A DNA stretch of 64,000 bases from Euryarchaeota archaeon UBA605 (GTDB lineage: Archaea > Thermoplasmatota > Poseidoniia > Poseidoniales > Thalassarchaeaceae): contig DATY01000029.1 of NCBI GenBank assembly GCA_002504905.1, forward strand, positions 78,306 through 142,305, given 5' to 3'. Below, piece after piece: positions 9,226 to 64,000 of this stretch. Numbering within the stretch: position 1 is the first letter of the stretch; every line of letters begins with the position of its first letter. The notes beneath the pieces were generated by a model. It saw only the letters and a list, made by a program, of their open reading frames with translations. It made no database searches and was not told the DNA's origin. A program made the translations under genes and the position numbers.

Positions 9226-9359
9226 GTATAAGCGCAACGGATGAAAAATGACTTCGGAAAATCAGATTTACCCCACAGACCGTAGGTCTGGATGATAGTT
9301 TAGTGCGAATGTTCAAGTGGGTATTGAACCCCATTTAGACCCTGATGCGAGGGTTCACT

Positions 9360-12300
9360 ATGTCAAATCAATTAAACAAAGTTACTATTTGTTTGGTAAT
9401 GACATCTCTATTAGTGCTAATGCCTCATTCAGGATTATTATCAAATTATGGAGACTATAGTGATGAAATTAAAGAAAAAAGAATTAACTCATCTTCTTCT
9501 GATTCTGATTCGTTATGGGTAGATGGTGGGCAACCTTGGCCCCAGCCAGGTAGAACTTCTGGTAGAGAATCCACTCCGCCCAATCATGGACCTGATGGAG
9601 GAGCAGGATTGGGTGCTCCAGATAATATTACAGAATTACAGTCGATAGTAGACCCTGTAATCAACTGGCAATATAGCAATTATATTTATTCTACAGATGC
9701 GTTTGCTACTCCAATTGCTGACCTATCTGAATCAATTGTATCCGACGAAGATTCTGATGAAAGATGTGGAGGAGACTCATTATTCACTGTAATCATACAA
9801 ACAGAAGATGTTGGAGGAAGCTTGCATAGTTTCCTTAGAATAATAGAAGGAGAAGATGCAGATCTTGCCTGGGAAGTTGACCTAGGAGAAACTGATGAAA
9901 TTAAGGCATCTCCAGTAGTTGTAGATTTAGACTATGATGGGAAGCAAGAAATTCTTGTTTCCTTTGATTTAAGTGGAACATTCTATGTCAAAGGTTATTC
10001 TCCTGAATTAGTTTGTTCAGTAACCGGTTGGTCACCAGGAGGTAGTCATGTCACTGAATTATTGTGGACATACTCAGATTCTACGTTAATGATTGGAAGT
10101 ACTGATGGCCCTTACGTCAGTAATGCGTATGGCGGACACAAGCCTACTGCCCAGCCTCTACTTGCAGATCTAGACTTGGATGGAACAGCGGAATTAGTAC
10201 TTTCATTAATTGAGAAAAATTCTGAAGAACCAGTAATCTTAGCATTAGATATCACCGGGACTTCTGCAACCTCCATATGGGAGAAAACATTGGATAAAGG
10301 AACACATCCATCAGATCCAACATTTGTACAAACTGATGAAAATACTGCTTTCGTGATTTTAACTTCTGTTCAGAGTTCTACAAGTGCAATGTGGCTGTGG
10401 AAACTTGATGCAGCGGATGGTGACTCAAATTGGGATGGGAAATCATTGGAAAATCTAAATAATTTTGATTCCAATGTACCTCACATTAGGCTTCCAGGAC
10501 CTGTGATTGCAAATTTAGATTCTGATGACGCTATGGAGATGGTGGTTACAATACCATCTGATTTTGACGGTAGTAGTGCAGCATATGGTGCTGAATATTA
10601 CGGTATTGAAATTAGCGATGGTACAAAAATTTGGGATTTTGAGGCCTCAAACGGTTATGCGGATTCTGCACCTATAGTTATTGATACTGATGAAGACGGA
10701 GATCATGACAGAGTTTGTTGGATTACTTGGACTACTAACAGTTGGAACACGAATAGAGATGGTTTCGCAGGATGTCATGATGACACTGACGGAACCAATC
10801 CTCAAGAAGCATGGAGTAAAGAAATTCTTGAACCACAAGGAGCGCCGAATGACGGAATTGCAGTTTCTTCACCTATTTGGATGAATATAGATGACTCTGA
10901 CGAACCAGAATTAATTGTGCCATATGGTAGAGAATTAAGGGCTTATGATGGAGAATTAGGAACTATGGCTGGAATAAACTCTTTCTGGAGTGAACCAATT
11001 GCAATTAACCATAGACTTTGGGCATCACCATCATTAGCAGATATTGATGGAGATGCAACTTTAGATTTAATTCTTGGAGATACCGTCATTTCAAATCAAG
11101 TAGCTGATATAAGGCCTCAATTGGATGGAAGAAGCATAGAGTTCAGCCCAGTTGCTCCAGACCCAGGAGAAATGGTAACTATCACAGTATCTTTTGAAAA
11201 TTCAGGTACCGCAGAAACTGATGAGGATTCAGATGTTATCTTATATGCTGATAATCAGATCATAGCTCAAGAAAGATTTGGGAATATGCAACCTGTTGAT
11301 CCAACAGGTTCAGGTTCTCTATCTACATTTACTGTAGAATGGTCAGGAAATCTAGGTGAACATGAATTCAAACTAGTTTTAGACCCTTACAGGAACATTA
11401 CACAATCTAGATACGATAATGATATTCATATTACGACATTGAGCATAGTTAATCCATATAATGCTAGTTTTGAGATCCCCACTGAACCAACCGTTGTCAC
11501 ACCCGGTGAAAACTCACTATTTACTCCAAATATTCGTTCTACAGGTAGGTTAGCAGGAATATGGAGCCTATCCGTAGACGACACAAATCTACCGGAAGGA
11601 TGGACGTGGAGCGATGAAACTACTGATGGCTTAGATTCAATTCAGATAGGAGTTGGGCAAATATGGAGTCCGAATCTGAGAATATTTGCACCGAGTGATG
11701 CATTAGGTTCTGACTCGGGTTACTTGACCCTAACATTAACTTTAGATGACGATAACAATGTTTCAATCTCTGCACTAGCAGCGGTGGAAGCAAATAGAAC
11801 TAGAGGTCTCTCAATTAGAGGGCCCGATGGGACTGCAAATACTCATGGATATGGTCTAACTGGAGAATACGCAGAGGCATGGATACTAATTCATAATTTA
11901 GGAAATGCATTGGAAAATCAAATTATTATGTCTTGGGATACAACTTCATGGGGTAATGATCTGAAATTATATGATTTAGAAGGAAATCAAATTCCTGCTC
12001 TAACTCTAGAACCAGATGAGATAATTTATGTCACTGCAAGACTGGATGTACCTAGTAATGCAAATTTGGGAGATTCAGTTAGTACACCTCTAGAAATGTG
12101 TGTTAGCGAGAATATATGTCAAACAATCGATATCTCATTCACCGCTACTGGCGTGACCACAGATGTACATCAGAGAACCGTTCCCGGCAGGACATTGTCA
12201 TGGGATATTTCAGCAGACATGCCTGTTGGGGAGAATCAACTTGAATGGTCTATGAATGATGCAGGATTAGTGATTCCAGGATGGTCTTGGAGTACGACCG

Positions 12301-15008
12301 GCGATTTAGAAATAGTTGATGAATTACTAATTCTTACTAGATCAGGGTCATCAAGAGTCTATGGAACAATAATATTGAATTTACCTAATGATGCTCCTCC
12401 ATCATACCATACATTCATTGAACAAAGTAGTCAATCAACAGATCATATCTTACAATTCTCACTCGAAGTATTACAAATTTATCGAGCTGATTTGACAATT
12501 ACTTCTCCAATAGAACAACCATATGAAGTTGAAGTTGAGGAAGATGTTCTAGTTATGATAAAGTTAGAGAATCCAGGAAATGGATTCGATACTTTCATAT
12601 TAAGTTCAGAACTAGTTACAAACCTCAATAATGAGGAAGAATTTGAAGTAACAGTTTCATTTACTAGCAGTACAGTGTCGTTGGGTCCTGGAAGTCTTCA
12701 AACAATCCCAGTAATAGTTAGCCTACCAGAGAATACTCCGGCAAATACAGAAATCGAAATTCTGATTATCATGACATCTCAGGGAAATCAAAGTGTAGAA
12801 GATTCGGAAATTATTTCACTCTCAGCGAAACAAGACCATAGGTGGGAGATAAATGGGGAGTACCTAGGGATTAATCTCAGAAATAGCACTATAATAACAT
12901 CTCCAGGAGAGTTAGGAGAAGTGATCTTGAATGCTAAGAATATTGGAAATCTAGAAGACGATATTTCTCTTGAAACATCAATCAATATCATATATTCAGG
13001 TTCTGATGATTCACGAGGATGGAATGCTTCTGGGACGGCAATTCAAGGTGTTGGAGTTAATGAAACTGGAAATCCTTCTGTATCTTGGTCGGTGCCTAAT
13101 GGTGCTTGGAATGGAACAATAATGCAAATTACGGTAAATGCTAACGCTAGAGGAGAGATTGTAGATACAATAATCTTCGATGTAGAAGTACCTCATATCA
13201 AGGAATGGAGGGCGATTTCAAGTCAAGTTGATTTAGAAATTGATCCAGGGGGTTCATCAATTGATATCGAGATAATGCAATTGGGCAATTCGCCATCAAA
13301 TGCATATTCAAATGTATATGTGAATGGTTCAAATGACTGGATAGTTGAGACACCAGAAGAATTGCCAGTTTTATCTCCGGGAGAAAGTGCATTCATGACA
13401 TTGAATATCACACCCCCAGAAAATGCCCAACATGGTAAAACTGTTGAGCTACATATCAGACTTAGAGAAGGCAACTCGTTATCTGAAACTATAGTTCCGT
13501 TAAGAGTTGCTGTAATTCACCAATTTGATTTATCAGGTCAAGGACCATGGGTTGTTTCAGAACATGGAGGTTTTCCTCATGCAACATTACTCAATGAAGG
13601 AAATGCTCCAACTACTATTACAATTAATGTTAGAAGTTTACCATCTGGATGGGAAGTAACAGGTGAAACAACTACTGTATTAGCAGTTGGAGAACTAAAA
13701 GGACTTCCTATTGAATTGATACCAGATTCAAATTGGGATGGAAGTACGTACACAATAAAAATAGAAGCTATTGATGATTTAGGCAATGTTGATGAAATAT
13801 TACTAGATACTGTAAAACAAAATTATTCTTGGGCAATGTCCCCCATTATTACAATGATTAGTGGCGATAATACTCTGTTAAAGATTCATGGAACAGATTC
13901 TGAATCTTCTGTTATTGATGGAAGTCAAGGATTACTGAACTGGGAGGGCAGTGGTGGTTGGTTATGGTTAGCCTCTCAGTCTGTCCAAGATGGAGAAATA
14001 ACCATTGATTCAAATGAAGGATTAGTTTATTCTTCTTACATTTCTGAGGAGGTTAGCAGAGAAGGTAATTGTTTCTTATTAGGACAACAGGGCGACATTA
14101 CTGCATATTGTAGTATTTTCAATGGAACTGGAAATTTTGACTACACCTTGATGTTAATTGATGATAATGGAAAACTTCTAGACTCTTACTCAAATACATT
14201 GGAGCATAACGCTTCTCTAGAAAGATTGAATCTAACTGCTACTAATTGGAATCCAGAACCAGGAAAAAGAAGTCTGATTTTGAGGGCTCTGGACTCCAGA
14301 GGCATAGAGTTCATTAGTACAGAAAAAGAATTTGAAATCCGGAGAAGTGATTGGAATATAGGCCTAACAGGAATTGAACTGGTAGGGACTGGAAGTAATC
14401 AGCAAGTTCAAATCACAACTATTAGAGAAAATCAAAATCTTCTTACTAACGCAGATTGCTTACTTGAAGTAAGAATACCCTCACAAGGATATAATGAAAA
14501 ACATATTATGGACCCCTCGGCTGTCTATTTCTTACCTAAAATAGATCGTCCGAATAATATTCCTGATGGAGATGAATTGATAGTACAATTTAGTTGTGCA
14601 TTCCCATGGGATATTGAATCAGACTCAACAGATAATGAACAGAGAATAATTTTGACAGAAGGATCGGATGAAAATGATGGAATCGAAGATTTAGAGACAG
14701 GGATAGCAGCAGCAGCTTTGGTAATCGGAGTTTCTATAGCATTAGCTTGGTTAGTGAAAAATCATAGGGAAAGAAAAGAAATGATGGAAATGACTGAGAA
14801 AGCAATAAAACAGCATTTATCAAATAAGAAGAATACAATAAGTAACGTAGCAGAGCAGAAAGAGAAAACGGATCAAGAGGCTGTCGATATTATTGAGAAT
14901 GTGACTGAAGAAATAATGGAAACAGTCGAAAATAAAGAAGAAAAAATAGAAGATGAAGAAGAATTAGATGAATTCGAACTCAGACTGAGAAGACTGGGTA
15001 AGTTGTAA
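9360..15008 (+). CDS. giant cell-surface protein (FG-GAP beta-propeller-like repeats + CARDB/Ig-like repeats + C-terminal TM anchor)
   Basis: Signal peptide MSNQLNKVTICLVMTSLLVLMPHSG. DxDxDG motifs (ADLDLDGTAELV, ANLDSDDAMEMVV, ADIDGDATLDLILGD). CARDB-like PDPGEMVTITVSFENSGTAETD. C-terminal hydrophobic IAAAALVIGVSIALAWLV then a basic/acidic tail. Alternative start at 9345 (MRGFTM...). Confidence 0.75.
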   Translation: MSNQLNKVTICLVMTSLLVLMPHSGLLSNYGDYSDEIKEKRINSSSSDSDSLWVDGGQPWPQPGRTSGRESTPPNHGPDGGAGLGAPDNITELQSIVDPVINWQYSNYIYSTDAFATPIADLSESIVSDEDSDERCGGDSLFTVIIQTEDVGGSLHSFLRIIEGEDADLAWEVDLGETDEIKASPVVVDLDYDGKQEILVSFDLSGTFYVKGYSPELVCSVTGWSPGGSHVTELLWTYSDSTLMIGSTDGPYVSNAYGGHKPTAQPLLADLDLDGTAELVLSLIEKNSEEPVILALDITGTSATSIWEKTLDKGTHPSDPTFVQTDENTAFVILTSVQSSTSAMWLWKLDAADGDSNWDGKSLENLNNFDSNVPHIRLPGPVIANLDSDDAMEMVVTIPSDFDGSSAAYGAEYYGIEISDGTKIWDFEASNGYADSAPIVIDTDEDGDHDRVCWITWTTNSWNTNRDGFAGCHDDTDGTNPQEAWSKEILEPQGAPNDGIAVSSPIWMNIDDSDEPELIVPYGRELRAYDGELGTMAGINSFWSEPIAINHRLWASPSLADIDGDATLDLILGDTVISNQVADIRPQLDGRSIEFSPVAPDPGEMVTITVSFENSGTAETDEDSDVILYADNQIIAQERFGNMQPVDPTGSGSLSTFTVEWSGNLGEHEFKLVLDPYRNITQSRYDNDIHITTLSIVNPYNASFEIPTEPTVVTPGENSLFTPNIRSTGRLAGIWSLSVDDTNLPEGWTWSDETTDGLDSIQIGVGQIWSPNLRIFAPSDALGSDSGYLTLTLTLDDDNNVSISALAAVEANRTRGLSIRGPDGTANTHGYGLTGEYAEAWILIHNLGNALENQIIMSWDTTSWGNDLKLYDLEGNQIPALTLEPDEIIYVTARLDVPSNANLGDSVSTPLEMCVSENICQTIDISFTATGVTTDVHQRTVPGRTLSWDISADMPVGENQLEWSMNDAGLVIPGWSWSTTGDLEIVDELLILTRSGSSRVYGTIILNLPNDAPPSYHTFIEQSSQSTDHILQFSLEVLQIYRADLTITSPIEQPYEVEVEEDVLVMIKLENPGNGFDTFILSSELVTNLNNEEEFEVTVSFTSSTVSLGPGSLQTIPVIVSLPENTPANTEIEILIIMTSQGNQSVEDSEIISLSAKQDHRWEINGEYLGINLRNSTIITSPGELGEVILNAKNIGNLEDDISLETSINIIYSGSDDSRGWNASGTAIQGVGVNETGNPSVSWSVPNGAWNGTIMQITVNANARGEIVDTIIFDVEVPHIKEWRAISSQVDLEIDPGGSSIDIEIMQLGNSPSNAYSNVYVNGSNDWIVETPEELPVLSPGESAFMTLNITPPENAQHGKTVELHIRLREGNSLSETIVPLRVAVIHQFDLSGQGPWVVSEHGGFPHATLLNEGNAPTTITINVRSLPSGWEVTGETTTVLAVGELKGLPIELIPDSNWDGSTYTIKIEAIDDLGNVDEILLDTVKQNYSWAMSPIITMISGDNTLLKIHGTDSESSVIDGSQGLLNWEGSGGWLWLASQSVQDGEITIDSNEGLVYSSYISEEVSREGNCFLLGQQGDITAYCSIFNGTGNFDYTLMLIDDNGKLLDSYSNTLEHNASLERLNLTATNWNPEPGKRSLILRALDSRGIEFISTEKEFEIRRSDWNIGLTGIELVGTGSNQQVQITTIRENQNLLTNADCLLEVRIPSQGYNEKHIMDPSAVYFLPKIDRPNNIPDGDELIVQFSCAFPWDIESDSTDNEQRIILTEGSDENDGIEDLETGIAAAALVIGVSIALAWLVKNHRERKEMMEMTEKAIKQHLSNKKNTISNVAEQKEKTDQEAVDIIENVTEEIMETVENKEEKIEDEEELDEFELRLRRLGKL

Positions 15009-23864: not shown

Positions 23865-25823
23865 TCATTCAGAATCCCATAGTGGTGGATAATCAAATCT
23901 TGGATCATAGTCTTCGTCAAATTGAACAACATAGACTCCTGTGACCATATCTGAAACGAAAACGAATCCTCTAGGGTCATATTGTAATCCCCAATTAAAT
24001 GGAATCATACAAGATGCCCAGCAATCCGCCATATCATACCCCATTTCAGTGGCTGGATCATCAATCCAAGGTGGACCGGCTGGAAGATAATAGCCAATGG
24101 TCTTAGTTTCGGCTAATTCTGAAATTGCTTGGAATCCTCTATCCGGCTCTGGAACTCCGTTTTCCCACACTATTTCATCCCAAATATCACCATGATCAGT
24201 TACCCAAGCTCCAGCATGATAGTGAGTGTAGTATACATGCCCTGATGGGCCAGTATCGCCATTATGCGGACTGAAAATATATCCACCAGGTATCCAATGC
24301 TGTGGATGTGAACCATTTCCTTTCATTCCCTCTCCAGGAAGCTTCCATTTTGAGACTAAGAAAGGTTCTGCAGGATCTGTTGTATCAATTGTCCATACGT
24401 AACCGGTATGATTCTCATTGGAACCGTATTCAGGAGCAATGTATGTGTAGTGTCTCCAGTTAACTCCATAGACTGGGTCTTCAAATCCAGTTCCACAGTT
24501 AGATGGCCAATTTTCTACAGGATCGAATACACTTATTCCTGAACAAATTAAGTAATCATTTGGAACTGCATAATGGATGTTATCATTTCCTTGATTGGCG
24601 TCGAGCCATTCGTCAGCATCCATATTTGCATGGCCACCACCTTCTGGACCATACCATCCATCATCAGCAGATGGGCAGCCCATCCAACGACCGACCTCAG
24701 GAGGCCAATTAATTCCTAAAGGATCTGGAACTTGAGGAGGAGTACTAACATCTACTAATCTCAAACCAGCACCCCAATAAGAAACTGCAAGTAATCTCTG
24801 CTGTGTTATAGGATGGACAAAGTAAACATTATCATGATTGAATATTGAACCACCACAGGTAGTGTATGGCTCTGGAGTGTAACCTCCCCAGCGAACTATT
24901 TCGCGATCAGAAGAATTTTCTTGTTCTTCATTTTGATTAGGATCCCACGAAGTAAAACCTCTTGGAACGTAAAATACTTGAGTTCCTTTGTAGAATGTAC
25001 CACTACTACCCTCGACCATTTCTGGATAAGGATCTGCTCCGAAAAGGAACAAATGACAATCTGCTTCATCCCACTGATTGACTGGATCAAAAGTAGGGTT
25101 CCAATCGCAATAAATTGCCAAATCTTGATTATGGAATCCTGCAGGAGGATTATTCCATTCTGCAACCTTCACCGGACTAGTTTTATCTCCAACATAAATC
25201 ACATCCATTCGATTTGCTCCACTATTAGCATCATCATCATTTGGAATAGGATCAAGTTCACTGTTTGTTAGTTCATGATTAACTAAAACCCAATTGTTAT
25301 CTTTAGTGACCTTGATATCAATCATTCTAGCTATTTCTGCATAATAAGTAGAAAGCATTTTTATGTTATTGGGATCACTAATATCGAGAATCTCAAATTG
25401 ATTGTAACTTGAAACATAAGCGTAACATCCACCAGTTCCGTCAGCATATATTTCACAATCTTCCATGAAATTACCTTCAATTGTTATTTCAGAGTTATCT
25501 CCAGGAGTAGGGCCTACATTCTTGTATTCATCTGAGCAAGGTCTTCCTGCAACATTATCTAATTCAGCAGGAGGTTTTTCGTTTCCATCGCAATTAAGAT
25601 TATGATAATCGATTAGTTTTGCATTGGCAGTGGATAATCTGTGAGCTAGCAGATCATTATGTGAGTGATTTTCATCTTCAATCTCTGTTACAGGATCAAT
25701 CCATTCCACATTTGCGTCTTCATCAGAGGAATCATCTCCAAGCATCGACATACACCCGGATAAGGGAGTTATTAGCATTAGAAAAACCATAAGAAACATT
25801 GGAAAATTAGAAATCCGTGACAT
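23865..25823 (-). CDS. secreted LVIVD-repeat beta-propeller-like protein, His-rich (paralog B)
   Basis: LVIVD-like strands EILDISD, LRLVDVS, VYVVQFD. Motifs HWIPGG..FSPHNGD and YHAGAW shared with paralog A. Lipobox-like LSGC. Confidence 0.55.
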   Translation of the reverse strand: MSRISNFPMFLMVFLMLITPLSGCMSMLGDDSSDEDANVEWIDPVTEIEDENHSHNDLLAHRLSTANAKLIDYHNLNCDGNEKPPAELDNVAGRPCSDEYKNVGPTPGDNSEITIEGNFMEDCEIYADGTGGCYAYVSSYNQFEILDISDPNNIKMLSTYYAEIARMIDIKVTKDNNWVLVNHELTNSELDPIPNDDDANSGANRMDVIYVGDKTSPVKVAEWNNPPAGFHNQDLAIYCDWNPTFDPVNQWDEADCHLFLFGADPYPEMVEGSSGTFYKGTQVFYVPRGFTSWDPNQNEEQENSSDREIVRWGGYTPEPYTTCGGSIFNHDNVYFVHPITQQRLLAVSYWGAGLRLVDVSTPPQVPDPLGINWPPEVGRWMGCPSADDGWYGPEGGGHANMDADEWLDANQGNDNIHYAVPNDYLICSGISVFDPVENWPSNCGTGFEDPVYGVNWRHYTYIAPEYGSNENHTGYVWTIDTTDPAEPFLVSKWKLPGEGMKGNGSHPQHWIPGGYIFSPHNGDTGPSGHVYYTHYHAGAWVTDHGDIWDEIVWENGVPEPDRGFQAISELAETKTIGYYLPAGPPWIDDPATEMGYDMADCWASCMIPFNWGLQYDPRGFVFVSDMVTGVYVVQFDEDYDPRFDYPPLWDSE

Positions 25824-32690: not shown

Positions 32691-32863
32691 AGCCTTGAAA
32701 AAATACAAATGTATTTATGTTGAAAAATGAAAAGTAAACAGACATTAATGAATGGATTGAGTTAACCAACAATAATGAATACAGGACACATACTTGCAAT
32801 CCTAATTGGTTTTTACGCTTCTTTCGCTGTTACGGTGATGAGTGTGACTCCATTATTAGGTTG
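32691..32863 (+). repeat. copy 2 of duplicated unit (leader + 29-aa ORF)
   Basis: See copy 1; its 3' end abuts or overlaps the photolyase start. Confidence 0.75.
32774..32863 (+). CDS. 29-aa hydrophobic peptide (copy 2): MNTGHILAILIGFYASFAVTVMSVTPLLG
   Basis: Hand translation; one aa differs from copy 1 with several synonymous changes, consistent with purifying selection on the peptide. Confidence 0.4.
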
Positions 32864-32893
32864 AAAAAAAAAACCCGTACCGGGGGAAGAAGA

Positions 32894-34459
32894 GTGAAAA
32901 ATGCCATAGTTTGGTTTAGGAAAACACTCAGAATTCACGATAACCCTATGTTAATTTGGGCAGAATCATCGCAGGATTTCGATTCTATAATTCCTATTTA
33001 CATACTGGAAGAGAATTGGAGTCATGAAAAGACAGGAAAACTAGGAAATAATAGATTGAGTTTTCTTTTCGATTCACTACTCGATTTAGATAATAATCTG
33101 AAAAATAATTTCGATACTAGATTACAAATATTCTCAGGAGATCCATGCGAGGTAATCGAATCAATCTTGAATACTAAAGATAGTAAAGTAAAATCTTTAC
33201 TTACTGACTACTGTTCCGAGCCAGGTAGCATTAATGATATTTTTCAGGTAACTGAAAATCTAGAAAAAAATGATATTAATGTGAAAGTTTTTCCTGCAGT
33301 AAATACTATCTTAGATATTGAGAAAATTATAAAGAATAAGAATTTTAAGTTGCCTAAATCTACTAATGATATGGAAAAAATATTCAACGATAATCATATT
33401 ATTGGACCCTATGGGAATCTAATAGATGGAGATCTACCAACTCCTAAAAAAATCTGTTCTGATTCATTATTTGTAAAATCAATTAAGAAACAAAAACATA
33501 TTTCAAATTTTTATATTCCAATAGAAGAAATTAGAGAAAGAAATTATCAATTGAAATTGGAAGTAGGGTTTGAGAATTCATATTTTCTGGGTGGAGAAAC
33601 TGAGGCTTTAAAAAGACTTGAAAAGAAAATTTCTGAGAGGCCTGATTTCGTTAACAGTTTTAGAAAACCTAAGACATACTCAACTAACGAAGATAACAAT
33701 CCAATGGAACCAACAACAACTGGACTTTCCCCCTATATTAGCAATGGGTGTTTGTCGGTTAGATTGGTTTGGAATGAGTGTGCTAGTATTCAAAATTCGG
33801 GACATACTAAACCTCCAGAATCTCTTCACGGACAATTAATGTTTAGAGAAATGTTCTACCTATTATCCAGATCTGTAGAAAATTGGGATAGCGATATTGG
33901 AAATATAAATTGTAAACCAGTAAAATGGGGAGATTATGATGAAGAAAAAATTAGAGCATGGGAATTGGGAAAAACAGGTTTCCCTTACATCGATGCAATG
34001 ATGAGGCAACTTGAGGCAACCGGATGGATGCATCATCTAGGCAGACATGCTGTTTCTTGCTTTCTAACAAGAGGACAGTTGTGGCAAAATTGGAAATATG
34101 GGAGAGATATTTTTGAAAGGAAATTAATTGATTCAGACTGGGCTGTGAATAACGGAAATTGGCTCTGGTTAGCTGGAGTTGCCCCCTTCTCAATGCCCTA
34201 CTACAGAGTCTATAATCCGTGTCCAGATAAGAAATCAAGTCTGAATGTGGAGACGGAAAAGGCTACTTTTATACGATATTGGATTCCTGAATTATCATTA
34301 TTCCCATCAAAATACATTTTTGAACCAAATTTAGCACCTTTAGAAATACAAAAATCGTCGAATTGTATAATTGGAGAAGACTACCCATTTCCAATTGTCG
34401 ATCGAAAGAATACTAGAAAGGAAAATCTAATTAAATTCAAATCGAATATTAAGCAATGA
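32894..34459 (+). CDS. cryptochrome/photolyase family protein, (6-4) photolyase / animal-cryptochrome type
   Basis: N-terminal IVWFRKTLRIHDNPML. C-terminal GWMHHLGRHAVSCFLTRGQLWQNWKYGRDIFERKLIDSDWAVNNGNWLWLAG...YYRVYNPC (FAD-binding region). Start ambiguous: the ORF track uses TTG at 32861, but the GTG at 32894 gives MKNAIVWFRK. Confidence 0.75.
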   Translation: MKNAIVWFRKTLRIHDNPMLIWAESSQDFDSIIPIYILEENWSHEKTGKLGNNRLSFLFDSLLDLDNNLKNNFDTRLQIFSGDPCEVIESILNTKDSKVKSLLTDYCSEPGSINDIFQVTENLEKNDINVKVFPAVNTILDIEKIIKNKNFKLPKSTNDMEKIFNDNHIIGPYGNLIDGDLPTPKKICSDSLFVKSIKKQKHISNFYIPIEEIRERNYQLKLEVGFENSYFLGGETEALKRLEKKISERPDFVNSFRKPKTYSTNEDNNPMEPTTTGLSPYISNGCLSVRLVWNECASIQNSGHTKPPESLHGQLMFREMFYLLSRSVENWDSDIGNINCKPVKWGDYDEEKIRAWELGKTGFPYIDAMMRQLEATGWMHHLGRHAVSCFLTRGQLWQNWKYGRDIFERKLIDSDWAVNNGNWLWLAGVAPFSMPYYRVYNPCPDKKSSLNVETEKATFIRYWIPELSLFPSKYIFEPNLAPLEIQKSSNCIIGEDYPFPIVDRKNTRKENLIKFKSNIKQ

Positions 34460-36761: not shown

Positions 36762-37442
36762 ATGAATAAAGTAGAAGCGGTTGTATTCGACTGTGATGGG
36801 GTGTTGGTAGATATCACTTCATCATGGCAACAAATACACAACTACTTCGGGACAAATAATAAAGAAAATCTTACAAGGTTTCTTGAGAAGGAAATTACAG
36901 ATGATGAATTTATGGAATTAGATGTCAAGTTATGGTTGGAAATTCAAGAGGAAATCCATATGGATGAAATAATGAGATGCTTTTCCGGTGTTAAATTGAT
37001 GAAAGGAGCTAGAGAAGTTATCGATGAATTGAAGAGAAGAGGAATTTATGTAGCTATTGTTTCATCAGGAGTTGCAAGATTCATTGGTTCAATTGCACAT
37101 ATTCTGAAAGTCGATGATTGGGCTGCAAATGATTTTTCATGGGATAAAGAGGGATATTTATCAGGGCCAGCACCTGCTATGGTTGATTCGCATAACAAGG
37201 GTGAGATGGTTGAAAAACTGGCTAGAATAAATGGTTTTGAGGCAGAAAAAATATGGACAATAGGGGACTCAGGTACAGATTTGTCAATGCAAATACCCGG
37301 TTCTAATTTTATAGGATTCAATCCTGCAAGAGAGAGATCTATCAATAAATTTACTGATGCAAGTGTACCAATAATTGTAGATAAGGATTTAACAAAAATT
37401 TGGAATATTATTTTCTCAGAAGATTTTCCAAAGAATGATTAA
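36762..37442 (+). CDS. HAD-superfamily hydrolase (phosphatase)
   Basis: VVFDCDGVLVD (DxDG) and GDSGTD motifs. Confidence 0.7.
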   Translation: MNKVEAVVFDCDGVLVDITSSWQQIHNYFGTNNKENLTRFLEKEITDDEFMELDVKLWLEIQEEIHMDEIMRCFSGVKLMKGAREVIDELKRRGIYVAIVSSGVARFIGSIAHILKVDDWAANDFSWDKEGYLSGPAPAMVDSHNKGEMVEKLARINGFEAEKIWTIGDSGTDLSMQIPGSNFIGFNPARERSINKFTDASVPIIVDKDLTKIWNIIFSEDFPKND

Positions 37443-39070
37443 GCAAATGGTATTGATGCTGAAGCATGTGTATGTAAATTTATCACTGTCAAAATACAGG
37501 GTTTAGGTTGGAAGCCTAACATTCTCTGATAATCAGTCTGATCTTGCCATGTAGAACTGTGAACAATTGTTGTTCCTTTATGGTCTCCAATATATTGTCC
37601 ATGGACATGGCCTGTAACGAAAATATCAGGTATTGTTCCAATTACCATACTATCTTCAGGTTCAGGAGATAATGGAGTTTTTCCCCCCCATGATGGTGCT
37701 AAATGTCTTCTTTCGAGCATTGAACGCATGGCCATCTCAGGTTTTGCATAAGTTACAGATCTAAGCCCTGCAACAAAGTCATCTATACTTTTTCCATGGT
37801 ACGAGAGAATTCTAACTCCATGAAGACTAAAATCACAAGGATTACCCACGAAGATAGCGTCTGTATAGTCTTGTTGAACCTCTGGATCAAGAGCAGGTTG
37901 GGGTTCTGCTGGACGTACGGCATCATGATTTCCTGGAAGAATAATCACATCTACCCAGTCTGGTAAGTCGCTAAGGAGCATTGCAAGAGCTCCATATTGC
38001 TTGAATAAATCAGTGATAGCTAAATGCCTATCTTGTCCTGGATAAATTCCAACACCATCAACACCATCTCCACTCAATACGAAATATTTGATTGTCTTGG
38101 CTAAAGGGTCTGTTTTGAACCAATTTATCATTTTCTGCCATTGAGGCTCAAGGAAGGTTTTGCTACCGACATGAACATCGGAAAGAAAAGCTGCAGAAAC
38201 AGATTCTTCAATATTAGCAGCATTTTTTGCTCTACGAGGTAGAGGAGGAAAGTGAATATTTGAAATAATAAATAAGTCTGTTCTGTCACCAATAAAAAAT
38301 CCACTAACTCCAACTACATCATCATTCATTAATCCATCAAGAGCAGCATGGAGAGGATTGGCTCCGGAAGGTGGCTTTAGTAGACATTGAATCTGAGTCG
38401 TTTCATCTTCTAAAAGAAACATAAGATTTCCTGATTTAGCCCAACGAGGTTCACTAACTAGACCAACAATAGTAATCTCGTATTCATTTGAAGAATAACG
38501 TTGACGATTTCTATATGCCTCAGAATTAGAAATCGGCCTTCTTGGTAATGAACGACCTTCAATCATTAGATTTCGAATTTGATGTAATCTACTGTTAAAA
38601 AATGATTTAATATCTGACAATTTACCTTCAGTAACTGAATTTCCCGTAATATCAAAATGTACTTCAATCTCTGAATCAACATCTTTTGCTAACATTGGAA
38701 AATCTTCAAGACTGTAATGAGATAAACCATGAGGTCTAGGTGCTGGAGAAATTTCATTGCTAGAAATTGGGGCTATTACTCTGCCAATTGGCGAGGGGTT
38801 ATCCGGAGTGGGGAGAGTCACTTGAGACTTCTTATGTGAAATCTGTAATTCCTCGGTAATAGATTCATCGATAGAAACTAAAGATAATAATTCATCTATA
38901 GATTTAACTGTAAGAAATTGAACATTTGATGAATTTGCGGCTTCTATCAATGGGTTAATATCTACTAATTGTTCAATTTTTTCTTTGGCTTCTAGGCCCA
39001 TTACGAGAAGTCCTGCAGCACTCAACATTTTCTGTTGTTGCGCCCAATCACCGGATGCCATACGGCTCAC
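37439..39070 (-). CDS. DNA polymerase II (PolD) small subunit DP1 (OB fold + calcineurin-like phosphoesterase)
   Basis: LSDVHVGSKTF, VLSGDGVDGVGIYPGQ, ILPGNHDAVRPAEPQP motifs. Confidence 0.75.
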   Translation of the reverse strand: MSRMASGDWAQQQKMLSAAGLLVMGLEAKEKIEQLVDINPLIEAANSSNVQFLTVKSIDELLSLVSIDESITEELQISHKKSQVTLPTPDNPSPIGRVIAPISSNEISPAPRPHGLSHYSLEDFPMLAKDVDSEIEVHFDITGNSVTEGKLSDIKSFFNSRLHQIRNLMIEGRSLPRRPISNSEAYRNRQRYSSNEYEITIVGLVSEPRWAKSGNLMFLLEDETTQIQCLLKPPSGANPLHAALDGLMNDDVVGVSGFFIGDRTDLFIISNIHFPPLPRRAKNAANIEESVSAAFLSDVHVGSKTFLEPQWQKMINWFKTDPLAKTIKYFVLSGDGVDGVGIYPGQDRHLAITDLFKQYGALAMLLSDLPDWVDVIILPGNHDAVRPAEPQPALDPEVQQDYTDAIFVGNPCDFSLHGVRILSYHGKSIDDFVAGLRSVTYAKPEMAMRSMLERRHLAPSWGGKTPLSPEPEDSMVIGTIPDIFVTGHVHGQYIGDHKGTTIVHSSTWQDQTDYQRMLGFQPKPCILTVINLHTHASASIPFA

Positions 39071-60490: not shown

Positions 60491-61213
60491 ATGAGGATAC
60501 TTCTAGGAAGTGGAGGAATTAGAACGGAAGAAAGAAAAAATCTATTCCTTGATCTAGTTAAAGAAAACTTTGAGGGATGTAAAAAAGTAATTTTCATACC
60601 TTTTGCTAGTGGAGATTATGATGAGTATACAAGTTCAGTGAAGGAAATATTCAGTAATTTAGGATTTGAAATTGTAGGAATACATGAGCTTGAGAATCCA
60701 TTAGAAGAATTAGAAAATATGGAAGGAATTTATGTGGGAGGAGGGAATACATTCTCATTGGTTAAAAAATTACATGAGGAAAAAATGATAGAAATTATCA
60801 GGAAAAAAGTGCTCAATGACGGAATACCATATGCGGGAGTTAGTGCTGGAGCAAATGTTGCTTGTCCAACAATGCAAACTACTAATGATATGCCAATTGA
60901 TCTAGTTCCATCCTTTGAAACATTCAATATTATTCCTTTTCAAATTAATCCACATTACCATCCGGGAAAGATCTGGTGGAAAGAAAATGATACATTAAAC
61001 GAGCATTTCGGGGAAACAAGAAAAAAAAGAATACAAGAGTATCATATGAATCATGACACTCCGGTAATAGGATTGTATGAAGGTGCTTTTCTTACTTGTA
61101 ATGATGAAGGAATAGAACTTCTTGGCAACAAAGCCGCTGTAATAATCAAAGGTTTAGAGATAGAAACAATTTCTCCGAATATAAAAATGAACTATGATTT
61201 ATCCACCAGATGA
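60491..61213 (+). CDS. pepE: peptidase E (S51 family alpha-aspartyl dipeptidase)
   Basis: Near-collinear with E. coli PepE: IFIPFASGDYDEYT, GGGNTFSL, GVSAGANVACPTMQTTNDMPI, FQINPHY. Confidence 0.8.
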   Translation: MRILLGSGGIRTEERKNLFLDLVKENFEGCKKVIFIPFASGDYDEYTSSVKEIFSNLGFEIVGIHELENPLEELENMEGIYVGGGNTFSLVKKLHEEKMIEIIRKKVLNDGIPYAGVSAGANVACPTMQTTNDMPIDLVPSFETFNIIPFQINPHYHPGKIWWKENDTLNEHFGETRKKRIQEYHMNHDTPVIGLYEGAFLTCNDEGIELLGNKAAVIIKGLEIETISPNIKMNYDLSTR

Positions 61214-61399
61214 AACTACGATTAATTCTATTTTTATATCTTCACTAATTGTTGAAGAATTAGGGATAATTGAATCATTGAAAACTGCTAGAACTGTTGA
61301 AGAAGGAATGTCTAACTCTGTTAGAATTGAAGAAATAGTTGCAGGTGTCTCGGACTCGAAAAACAGACTATCATTTTGGTAAACAACTTCGACTCGCAT
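61199..61399 (-). CDS. ThiS/MoaD-like beta-grasp sulfur carrier / SAMP-like protein, 66 aa, C-terminal Gly-Gly
   Basis: MRVEVVYQNDSLFFESETPATISSILTELDIPSSTVLAVFNDSIIPNSSTISEDIKIELIVVSSGG. The ORF track covers it only inside an 88-aa ORF (61199..61465) with a spurious N-terminal extension that reaches into tRNA-Ser. Confidence 0.5.
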   Translation of the reverse strand: MRVEVVYQNDSLFFESETPATISSILTELDIPSSTVLAVFNDSIIPNSSTISEDIKIELIVVSSGG

Positions 61400-61452: not shown

Positions 61453-61538
61453 GCCGAGATCGCATAGCCCGGTATTGCGATGGATTCGAAATCCATTGTC
61501 CGTTGGACGCGGGGGTTCAAATCCCTCTCTCGGCGCCA
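61453..61538 (+). tRNA. tRNA-Ser (anticodon CGA), long variable arm, CCA encoded
   Basis: Same acceptor and D-arm as tRNA-Ser(GGA); anticodon stem ATGGA/TCCAT with loop TTCGAAA. Confidence 0.85.
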
Positions 61539-61585: not shown

Positions 61586-62278
61586 ATGCCTCAATATGAA
61601 ATTGTTGATAGTGAAGAATTAAGAATGGTAAAAGTCACATTAAATGGAGATACGGTGCGTGGAGAATCAGGTGCACTTCATTACATGATTGGTAATATAG
61701 AAATGGTAACTAAAGCACCAAGTGTAGGAGGTTTTCTGAAGTCAATGGTTTCTGGAGAATCAGTATTTAGACCTACATTTACCGGAGTGGGCGAAGTATA
61801 TTTTGGACCACCAACATTTGGAGAATACCATATTTTAGAGTTGGATGGTAATTCAATGGTTCTAGACTCAGGAGCATATGTGTGTTCAGATGAAGGAATA
61901 GAAGTAGGAATTATCAGAAATAAAGGTATGTCAATGTTGGCTGGAGGTGAAGGAATCTGGCAAACTACTGTTTCTGGAACTGGAACTTTAATATATTATT
62001 CAGAAGGACCTATTCAGGAAATCAATCTTTCAAATAGTACTCTTACGGTTGATGGCAATTTTGCAGTTGCTAGAGATGCATCATTAAATTTCGAAACAAG
62101 AATGTTAGGGAAAGGACTAATGTCAAAAATAGCAGGCGGAGAAGGATTCGTCAATATAATTTCAGGAACTGGAAAAGTATACCTCTCACCTGTTCCGAGT
62201 CGTTTCAATAATTTAGCAGGAAGAGTAATCAATGATACAGTAAGTGGAATGATTCCTTTCTTAAATAGAAATAATTAA
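61586..62278 (+). CDS. AIM24/DUF124 (TIGR00266) family protein
   Basis: Repetitive Gly-rich double-psi-like pattern (GESGA..M, SGESVF, AGGEG..Q, GGEGF) matches family architecture. Confidence 0.55.
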   Translation: MPQYEIVDSEELRMVKVTLNGDTVRGESGALHYMIGNIEMVTKAPSVGGFLKSMVSGESVFRPTFTGVGEVYFGPPTFGEYHILELDGNSMVLDSGAYVCSDEGIEVGIIRNKGMSMLAGGEGIWQTTVSGTGTLIYYSEGPIQEINLSNSTLTVDGNFAVARDASLNFETRMLGKGLMSKIAGGEGFVNIISGTGKVYLSPVPSRFNNLAGRVINDTVSGMIPFLNRNN

Positions 62279-62280
62279 GC

Positions 62281-64000
62281 TCAAAATGGCTTTAAATCTT
62301 CAGAGCTTTTCAATAGAACTACACGAGCGCCGGGGCCTAAACGTACTTGCTTTTGTCCAGCGAACTCTCCAATTTCGCCATTTAAAATCGCAATTTCATC
62401 TCCTCTAGATAAGCCTGCAGCAATTATGGGAATGAATTGCTTGAATGCCACAATACCTACAGATCCACTACTATCAACCAAAGTGATAGCCCAACGAGAA
62501 ACACCTTTTCCATTCGGGAAGGCATTTATAGACCAGATTCTACCGACTACATTTACTCTAGTTTCTATATCAATCATCTCTGAACTCTCTTCATCTTCAA
62601 CAACATAAATACTAGATTCAGAATCTAGATCTATCACCAACTCGCTTTTCCAAATGGAGGTTAATGCATTTTCAATTTTAACTCTAGAATCATTTTGAAT
62701 AGAGCGAGAAACTTTCTTTAGACCGCCTTGACGATGTGTTCTGACCTTCGCCCTTTCATAACCATCAACCAATCTGAATGTTAATTCAATACTACCATCA
62801 GATTTTAGCGTTGGTCCACTCAACTCTCTTACTTCACCAATTACTGTATGGCGAGTCTTAATTTCTTGCATAGGAGTTATTGGCCACGCATGAGAGAATT
62901 TCTCAAGTCTTTTTTCAGAAGGTAAAATTAATTCATAATTACTATTTTCACAAATTCCTCTTAGTTCACATCTATTGCAACGTGCCTTAGGATCGGGGTC
63001 AACAGCTACCTCAGAAGGTATTCCTCCAACTTCAAAATATCTTAAAGGAGAAGGATTAGCGGGAAAATCAGAGATTTCAAGTGAATCATTGTTGTGTAAC
63101 TTTTGATATAATTTCTCTAAATCTATATTCAACTGAGACATTTCTTTTTCACTCGGTATAGGAACTTGTTTAATTGTACCTGGACCTAAGTACCAGACTT
63201 CAAGAGATTCTACCTCGTTATTTCTAGAATGCGTTTCCCACCATAACCATGAATATAATCTCAATTGTTCAACATAGCCTCCTGAACGATCACCCTTACC
63301 TACAGAAGCTTTCAAGTCTACGATTCTGATTTTACCATTCCAACGATAGACCAAATCATATTCTCCCTGAAACCAGTCATCAGGGTGGCAAGTAGTCTCT
63401 GTAAATCCTGATGCATCTGGATCTACAAACCAAGGACGAGAGATTTCCCATGCCTCAACCCATGAAACACTAGAACCACTTTTTTGGGAGCATGGATGAG
63501 GAGATTTCCAATCTTTCGGAAATCCATCCGGAGATGGCCATTCAGGACGATATTGACCAACTCTCCAAGAATCTAAATTTGGTCCCCCATTATTATTCAT
63601 ACATGACTCAACTTGATCTAAATGAAGTCTAAGTCCGGCCTCTATCATTTGCATACCCTCATCAGGATTAATATCATCTGATTTACCTACACGATTTGGA
63701 CTTGATTCCCAATCAGAAATTGCATTGTTCCAACAATAATCGAAATGGACTTTTGCGCGAGAAATTGCCCATTCTTCTAATTCTTCTCTATTCTTAGGCC
63801 ATGAATCTTGTTCTCTTGTATCTAATTGAGGACCAATCCATCCAGTATCAGAATCATATGATACTGAACCGTCTTCATTCAGAGGAGAGGAAATCAAATT
63901 TCCATCATTAGGAGAAATTAGAACTGGAGATTCACGAAGTACTCTAGAGATACAATCTTCTACCGCATTACCCCTTAATATCTGTGGAGGTAGAGGACTC
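62281..64000 (-). CDS. Cas4/RecB-family PD-(D/E)XK nuclease with Fe-S cluster, fused to C-terminal OB-fold domain; 5' end beyond window
   Basis: Motifs D..EYDLVYR / IVDLK / QLRLY (QxxxY), Cys ...TTCHPDDW plus CNRCELRGIC (Cx2Cx5C), and an OB-like C-terminus. The frame is open upstream of the TTG at 63895-97 to the window end (no in-frame stop). Confidence 0.55.
   Translation of the reverse strand, partial: SPLPPQILRGNAVEDCISRVLRESPVLISPNDGNLISSPLNEDGSVSYDSDTGWIGPQLDTREQDSWPKNREELEEWAISRAKVHFDYCWNNAISDWESSPNRVGKSDDINPDEGMQMIEAGLRLHLDQVESCMNNNGGPNLDSWRVGQYRPEWPSPDGFPKDWKSPHPCSQKSGSSVSWVEAWEISRPWFVDPDASGFTETTCHPDDWFQGEYDLVYRWNGKIRIVDLKASVGKGDRSGGYVEQLRLYSWLWWETHSRNNEVESLEVWYLGPGTIKQVPIPSEKEMSQLNIDLEKLYQKLHNNDSLEISDFPANPSPLRYFEVGGIPSEVAVDPDPKARCNRCELRGICENSNYELILPSEKRLEKFSHAWPITPMQEIKTRHTVIGEVRELSGPTLKSDGSIELTFRLVDGYERAKVRTHRQGGLKKVSRSIQNDSRVKIENALTSIWKSELVIDLDSESSIYVVEDEESSEMIDIETRVNVVGRIWSINAFPNGKGVSRWAITLVDSSGSVGIVAFKQFIPIIAAGLSRGDEIAILNGEIGEFAGQKQVRLGPGARVVLLKSSEDLKPF

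Follow-up and report, generated by a model that had tools for sequence, protein, structure and literature searches.

The stretch of DNA analyzed here, which we call the window, comprises 64,000 nucleotides of contig DATY01000029.1 (assembly GCA_002504905.1, positions 78,306 to 142,305) from Euryarchaeota archaeon UBA605, a member of the Thalassarchaeaceae within the Poseidoniales. At its far end, on the minus strand, it carries most of a gene for a RecB-like PD-(D/E)XK nuclease that is followed by two predicted OB folds. Read from position 63999, the frame stays open for 572 codons until the stop codon at 62281-62283. A first-pass annotation, made from the letters of the window and a list of its open reading frames (ORFs), had placed the open end at 64000; the frame is indeed open to the window edge, but it reaches 63999. 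The ORF lister returned a "complete" ORF of 538 amino acids (aa) in this frame (62281-63897, minus strand) with a TTG start at 63897, which is merely where a start-like codon first occurs in this frame and not the real start of the gene, as the frame runs on to the window edge. The G+C content of the gene is ordinary for the window.

In a search of 5.8 billion proteins we found 505 homologues. The complete top homologues are 611-617 aa long and 56-88% identical to the fragment, and their alignment begins at the first residue encoded in the window, so that only 43 N-terminal residues are missing from it. According to these homologues, the missing stretch holds the sequence RLSASQVITWxxCPRLWYY, including the first cluster cysteine, C30; a stretch of this type is the usual N-terminal helix of Cas4/AddB-type nucleases. 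The 43 codons beyond the window edge are expected to resemble MPVRRANPEV...CPRLWYYSYIPKLK. The full-length protein of about 615 aa contains no helicase, ATPase domain or other extra domain, and the further N-terminal domains (for example a helicase) that the first-pass annotation had thought possible can be discarded. The features of the gene are as follows:

62281-63999, minus strand: coding sequence fragment, residues 44-615 of a protein of about 615 aa plus the stop codon (open frame, homologue alignments)
63955-63975, minus strand: motif I helix, RGNAVED, with G53 and E57 invariant
63379-63933, minus strand: family-specific insertion of about 190 aa between motifs I and II (alignments, structure model, split PDDEXK_1 match)
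63343-63363, minus strand: motif II, EYDLVYR, with E256 and D258 invariant
63310-63324, minus strand: motif III, IVDLK, with D271-x-K273 invariant
63253-63267, minus strand: QxxxY motif, QLRLY, with Q288 and Y292 invariant
62950-62979, minus strand: CX2CX5C triad, CNRCELRGIC, with C384, C387 and C393, 100% conserved in clade A
62602-62910, minus strand: OB fold 1, residues 407-509 (beta-barrel in the model, weak SSB profile hits)
62308-62559, minus strand: OB fold 2, residues 524-607 (beta-barrel in the model, PF01336, RPA profile hit, Foldseek)

Nuclease domain and tandem OB folds

Motifs EYDLVYR, IVDLK, QLRLY and CNRCELRGIC had already been recognized in the first-pass annotation, and all four were located on the minus strand. 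We assessed their conservation in an alignment of 31 diverse family members with identities down to 21%. In a neighbour-joining tree the family splits into clades A and B, the window gene belonging to clade A, and in both of them alike G53, E57, E256, D258, D271, K273, Q288 and Y292 are invariant. Among these residues, D258, D271-x-K273, Q288 and Y292 supply the D, (D/E)xK and QxxxY catalytic motif set of PF12705-type nucleases. The nuclease motifs, together with the homologue set, lie far beyond what could be expected by chance.

The N-terminal part of about 400 aa is a RecB-like PD-(D/E)XK domain of the Cas4/AddB/Dna2 kind with its catalytic residues intact. The fragment encoded in the window matched the Pfam PDDEXK_1 profile (PF12705) with an E-value of 4.4e-9 (37.1 bits, cut-off 22), and the same profile matched all 31 members (best E=9e-20). 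The Cas_Cas4 profile (PF01930) weakly matched one of the 31 (E=0.0043) and the Pfam model of Dna2 none of them, and UvrD-like helicase lobes of the AddAB/AdnAB/RecBCD type were not found by profile in the family members. By profile, then, the domain belongs to PF12705 (AddB/phage-exonuclease type) and not to Cas4 proper (PF01930), as had been supposed. Because of the insertion of about 190 aa between motifs I and II, PDDEXK_1 aligns to the full-length protein (P0002) in two stretches. This insertion contains two long helices and an extra, nearly invariant cysteine (C176, in VESC, 63601-63612). It also has a loop with the sequence PAPDGFP, and the block EAWEISRPWFVDP at 63418-63456, which reads EAWEIxRPWFVDP across the family, is invariant.

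Clade A conserves cysteines C30, C384, C387 and C393 without exception, although C30 lies outside the window and is visible in homologues only. One N-terminal cysteine plus a C-terminal CX2CX5C is the canonical Cas4/AddB/Dna2 arrangement, and the four residues are the predicted ligands of a [4Fe-4S] cluster. The upstream cysteine previously taken as the first ligand (in TTCHPDD, 63376-63396) sits at a position that varies between C, S and A, and C30 is the conserved first cysteine instead. Among 13 representatives of clade B, C393 is absent in three and all four cysteines are absent in one.

A model of the full-length protein was mediocre (pLDDT 71) and consisted of the nuclease domain, a cysteine loop that had low confidence in this metal-free model, and two beta-barrels. 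A model of residues 1-405 made with a more diverse alignment reached a pLDDT of 88.9 and a pTM of 0.90, and its best match in the PDB was Dna2 (5ean; E=2e-4, 410 aligned columns, query-normalised TM-score 0.40). Further PDB matches of this model were ACE1 (an Argonaute-associated Cas4-family protein), AddB, AdnAB, MGME1, Exo5 and Cas4; all of these proteins, Dna2 included, are DNA nucleases. Among viral models the best matches were RecB-family/Cas4-like phage exonucleases of 250-290 aa, which lie wholly inside the domain with target-normalised TM-scores of up to 0.70. A profile search of the PDB sequences returned no nuclease relatives and weak OB hits only. As modelled, the domain falls in the Fe-S branch of the RecB-like DNA nucleases.

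Where a single OB-fold-like domain of about 150 aa had been proposed, structure prediction gave a region of about 200 aa with two barrels. The family profile matched OB fold 1 to the Sulfolobus SSB structures 1o7i and 2mna with E-values of about 0.04, and NCBIfam SSB models hit this fold faintly (E about 0.01). OB fold 2 of the window fragment matched PF01336 with an E-value of 5.5e-5 (23.5 bits, just below the cut-off of 27), the same OB model matched 23 of the 31 members, and the family profile related this fold to the Pyrococcus abyssi RPA 8aa9 (E=0.012). When searched against the PDB with Foldseek, the barrels matched tandem-OB DNA binders (HIN-200, POT1, TEBP-alpha and an RPA70-like chain) with E-values of about 1e-9 to 1e-7 and a Foldseek probability of 1.0. 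The tail, as modelled, is thus placed in the OB-fold class as two RPA/SSB-like folds, with weak sequence similarity, and by analogy with these relatives it may bind single-stranded DNA (ssDNA). The covalent fusion of a Cas4/RecB-like nuclease of the Fe-S type to an OB-fold module, proposed in the first-pass annotation, is borne out by the PDDEXK_1 match, the cysteine signature and the OB barrels.

The family shares features with several known systems and differs from all of them. With PF12705 nucleases (the nuclease domains of AddB and AdnAB and the phage COG2887 RecB-family exonucleases) it has in common motif I, the D, DxK and QxxxY motifs, the C...CX2CX5C arrangement, a profile match above the curated cut-off in all family members and a core inside which phage exonucleases of 250-290 aa fit; in contrast to them, it has the insertion of about 190 aa and two OB folds, lacks helicase lobes, and is encoded by a chromosomal gene of an archaeal order. 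Cas4 proper (PF01930; Sulfolobus SSO0001, PDB 4ic1) shares the RecB core and the four-cysteine arrangement, and about 100 residues align at 22-24% identity, but the protein described here is three times larger, has no cas1, cas2 or CRISPR nearby and is matched by Cas_Cas4 in only one of the 31 members. Dna2 cuts RPA-coated 5' flaps that are threaded through a tunnel. It is the best match among solved structures and also combines an Fe-S nuclease domain of about 400 aa with an OB fold, which in Dna2 is N-terminal and single whereas here the OB folds are C-terminal and doubled, and the SF1B helicase of Dna2 is absent. Unlike the multi-subunit AddAB, AdnAB and RecBCD, whose nuclease domain is attached to UvrD-like helicase lobes, the family has no such lobes. 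A gene pair of two paralogues does exist in related lineages. Archaeal RPA and SSB (P. abyssi RPA 8aa9/8aaj; S. solfataricus SSB 1o7i) share OB folds and weak sequence similarity (E=0.012-0.05), but here the OB folds are fused to a nuclease and not free-standing, and the scores are below family cut-offs. The haloarchaeal RPA-RPAP-phosphoesterase operons follow a similar logic, as an OB-fold ssDNA binder is coupled to a nucleic-acid hydrolase, but they encode the two as distinct proteins, with a calcineurin-like phosphoesterase of unrelated fold as the hydrolase.

The architecture, already suspected to be non-standard in the first-pass annotation, matches no characterized family, and the full-length protein of about 615 aa without helicase is not a Dna2- or AddB-like protein of known domain order. 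Members of the family are annotated in public databases only as "PD-(D/E)XK nuclease family protein" or "hypothetical protein", and full-text literature searches for the family or its architecture found no description. A phylogenomic survey of Cas4 (PMC5704561) reports that some pfam12705 members are fusions with UvrD and others are linked to COG1205 helicases, and mentions no OB-fold fusion, the nuclease-OB architecture not being among the pfam12705 contexts catalogued there. We therefore regard the protein as a new domain architecture made from well-known modules, without any new principle.

Paralogues, chromosomal position and distribution

The paralogue of clade B, of 569-646 aa, is encoded immediately upstream of A and on the same strand in other Poseidoniales lineages (for example L088:8001-11665, L091:4617-8195 and L086:6017-9827 among loci L086-L172). 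On a 3.0-Mb contig and on contigs of Poseidoniaceae and other Thalassarchaeaceae, B and then A follow directly after ABCE1/RLI, which in these loci is a full-length equivalog of the ribosome-recycling factor (NF009945, 743-797 bits, cut-off 469). The same match led us to reject the possibility that this upstream ABC ATPase was a Rad50/SbcC-like partner. When 80 metagenomic loci were collected with a B profile, 75 of them had A immediately downstream on the same strand, with a gap that was mostly of 26-86 bp (range 26-862 bp), four stopped at a contig edge, and one had no A within 5.4 kb. This single B locus without a downstream A, despite 5.4 kb of room (L167:4381-6201), encodes a relative of P0172 from clade B in which none of the four cluster cysteines is left.

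No B gene was found within about 8 kb in any of the 85 window-type loci, nor in the 64-kb window, which has no ABCE1 either. According to the tree and the loci, the A-only clade of the window is nested in clade A and its sister group is B-associated, so that a single event at the base of the window's clade removed B from this position, by loss or by relocation. All the catalytic residues are kept in both clades. Probably A and B worked together ancestrally, and in the window's clade, where only A is left at this position, it would act alone or as a homo-oligomer. A and B could have formed a two-nuclease, four-OB end-processing complex without a motor, possibly replacing HerA-NurA/Dna2-type functions, or else a pair coupled to ABCE1 that would link ribosome recycling to nucleic-acid degradation, although we consider such proposals speculative and rather unlikely. 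Were the complex real, Marine Group II would possess a novel type of archaeal machine for processing DNA ends, reduced to a single subunit in the window's clade.

The chromosomal position of the gene is conserved across Poseidoniales, beside the convergent block PAC2-Nop10-eIF2alpha-S27e-L44e, and in some lineages AIM24 and peptidase S51 genes join this neighbourhood. In syntenic genomes of the window's clade the upstream genes encode PdxT and an uncharacterized radical SAM protein, and not the helicase or defence proteins that the first-pass annotation had advised looking for beyond position 64000. The gene is a vertically inherited, highly conserved chromosomal housekeeping gene of Poseidoniales, the archaea known as Marine Group II, and its fixed place next to ribosomal and translation genes does not agree with the orphan, defence-island or viral flavour implied before.

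The radical SAM protein, of about 380 aa, is encoded directly upstream of the nuclease throughout the window's clade (L002:4807-5952, L003:2526-3680, L004:4238-5377), and in syntenic genomes its gene lies just beyond what corresponds to window position 64000; in L001 it was called as two ORFs of 143 and 235 aa. It matches Radical_SAM, Fer4_12 and, weakly, DUF8061. A role as a DNA-repair enzyme (such as an SP lyase) was considered and rejected, as only generic radical-SAM hits were obtained and the NCBIfam families were far below cut-off. On the other side, an AIM24/TIGR00266-family gene (61586-62278, plus strand) runs convergently towards the nuclease gene, and the two stop codons are only 2 bp apart. 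Of the related lineages, L001 and L004 have this gene whereas L002 and L003 lack it, which makes it a variable insertion in an otherwise fixed neighbourhood.

The family is narrow: a HMMER search against 1.84 billion cluster representatives gave 220 clusters at E<=0.001, and the named members are Poseidoniales, Thalassarchaeaceae, Poseidoniaceae or unclassified Thermoplasmatota/Euryarchaeota metagenome-assembled genomes (MAGs). We found 367 relatives in the GTDB species genomes; the best 80 of these 367 come from Poseidoniales, Thalassarchaeaceae or unclassified marine-archaeal (Euryarchaeota/Thermoplasmatota) MAGs, save one contig labelled Micrococcales. This contig of 6 kb (L056, NZLD01000096.1), from a "Micrococcales bacterium" MAG, carries a window-type gene 58% identical; most likely it has been misbinned and belongs to Marine Group II.

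Possible function

Judging from its relatives, we lean slightly towards the view that the protein is an Fe-S nuclease for ssDNA ends or flaps with a built-in tandem OB module, which would serve in recombinational repair or in the processing of replication intermediates. In this mechanism, the tandem OB module would hold ssDNA, as RPA does for Dna2 in eukaryotes, and would feed or anchor a free end or flap into the active site of the nuclease, while the insertion may be an arch or lid enclosing the strand, as in Dna2 and Exo5. In this way ssDNA ends and flaps could be trimmed or resected by a protein that has no motor of its own. Its likeliest identity is that of a DNA-repair enzyme, rather than of a component of a CRISPR or defence system.

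Several observations weigh against this proposal. The global structural likeness to Dna2, AddB and AdnAB is modest (query-normalised TM-scores of 0.3-0.4), and the sequence matches of the OB folds are all under curated thresholds. The Fe-S cluster is predicted from cysteine spacing, and one or all of the cysteines have been lost in some B-clade members. Furthermore, there is no DNA-repair link among the neighbours, which upstream are PdxT and radical SAM here and ABCE1 in the B-A lineages, and it is only from the relatives that the polarity and the kind of substrate, whether DNA or RNA and whether an end, a flap or a gap, can be suggested.

The protein could also be the nuclease and DNA-binding subunit of a helicase-nuclease machine of the AddAB, AdnAB or Dna2 type whose motor is encoded elsewhere, in which case it would not resect alone. 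It shares its Pfam family with the AddB and AdnAB nuclease domains, AddB, AdnAB and Dna2 are among its top structural hits, and the ancestral B-A pair recalls the two-subunit design of AddAB and AdnAB. However, besides ABCE1, no helicase or ATPase is conserved next to the gene in the loci with inspected gene calls, ABCE1 is a ribosome-recycling factor, and the fused OB folds would already handle the substrate, so we consider this explanation unlikely, though worth keeping in mind. The proximity to ABCE1 might instead indicate that the protein acts on RNA, for example by degrading the mRNA or rRNA fragments that are freed when ABCE1 splits stalled ribosomes, as in three divergent lineages ABCE1 is followed at a distance of 14-168 bp by the B-A pair, which shares its strand and lies within a block of translation genes, and PF01336-type OB folds can bind RNA too. 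Nevertheless, to our knowledge, all the characterized Fe-S nucleases of the Cas4/AddB/Dna2/Exo5 type cut DNA, the OB folds described here are closest to RPA and SSB, and the window's clade has parted the gene from ABCE1, with different upstream genes, yet has kept it intact, which makes a role in RNA degradation improbable.

Cas4-type motifs could suggest a solo Cas4 working in defence or CRISPR adaptation, or a recently acquired viral exonuclease, and phage exonucleases are good structural matches, with PHROG "exonuclease" families reaching E-values of 1.7e-8. PADLOC defence models gave no significant match, their hits being of 16-19 bits (DruK 18.2 bits, Cas4 16-18 bits) over short motif-level stretches. 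No CRISPR array was found in the window, which showed neither tandem arrays nor CRISPR RNA families, in agreement with the first-pass annotation; its claim that cas genes are absent too holds for the called neighbours and for the 10 largest ORFs of the window, which are housekeeping genes, the remaining ORFs not having all been scanned. The called neighbours, in the window as well as in those related loci for which genes had been called, are housekeeping genes and include neither cas nor defence genes. Added to the Cas_Cas4 profile touching a single member, the ordinary G+C content, and the fixed chromosomal position with a wide spread across one archaeal order, this makes a defence or viral origin very improbable, and a CRISPR/defence role was rejected on the basis of the missing arrays, the weak PADLOC hits and the housekeeping synteny. 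Finally, the tandem OB folds and the loss of cluster cysteines in some B-clade members would fit a protein whose nuclease fold is catalytically dead and whose sole function is to bind ssDNA in the manner of RPA, an idea to which we give almost no credence, as every catalytic residue is invariant in the 31 members despite their divergence.

If the protein is an ssDNA end or flap nuclease, it would bring together in one polypeptide a Cas4/AddB/Dna2-type nuclease and an RPA-like tandem OB module, for which eukaryotes pair separate proteins (Dna2 plus RPA), and its characterization would add a compact helicase-free design to the known end and flap nucleases. Sequence is so far the only source of knowledge on the DNA-maintenance machinery of Marine Group II archaea, an uncultured group that ranks among the most abundant microbes in the surface ocean. 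Moreover, the ancestral tandem of two paralogues with intact catalytic residues is a natural experiment on how two-subunit nucleases arise and then become simplified.

Other genes of the window

A SAMP2/ThiS-type ubiquitin-like gene (61199-61399, minus strand) encodes a protein of 66 aa with a C-terminal Gly-Gly. It is 36% identical to a SAMP2-like ORF located after A in L088, and most of the loci with inspected gene calls likewise have a 66-aa ORF following A on its own strand. A tRNA-Ser gene (anticodon CGA; 61453-61538, plus strand) lies between the peptidase S51 and AIM24 genes.

Farther away, an ORF of 652 aa (23865-25823, minus strand) has no Pfam match at E<=1e-5, and another of 1887 aa (9345-15008, plus strand), whose sole Pfam match is an NPCBM-associated NEW3 domain, probably encodes a giant surface or secreted protein. 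The window also contains, both more than 20 kb from the nuclease gene, a DNA photolyase (32861-34459, plus strand) and a DNA polymerase small-subunit-B/metallophosphoesterase protein (37439-39070, minus strand) that is consistent with the small subunit of archaeal PolD.

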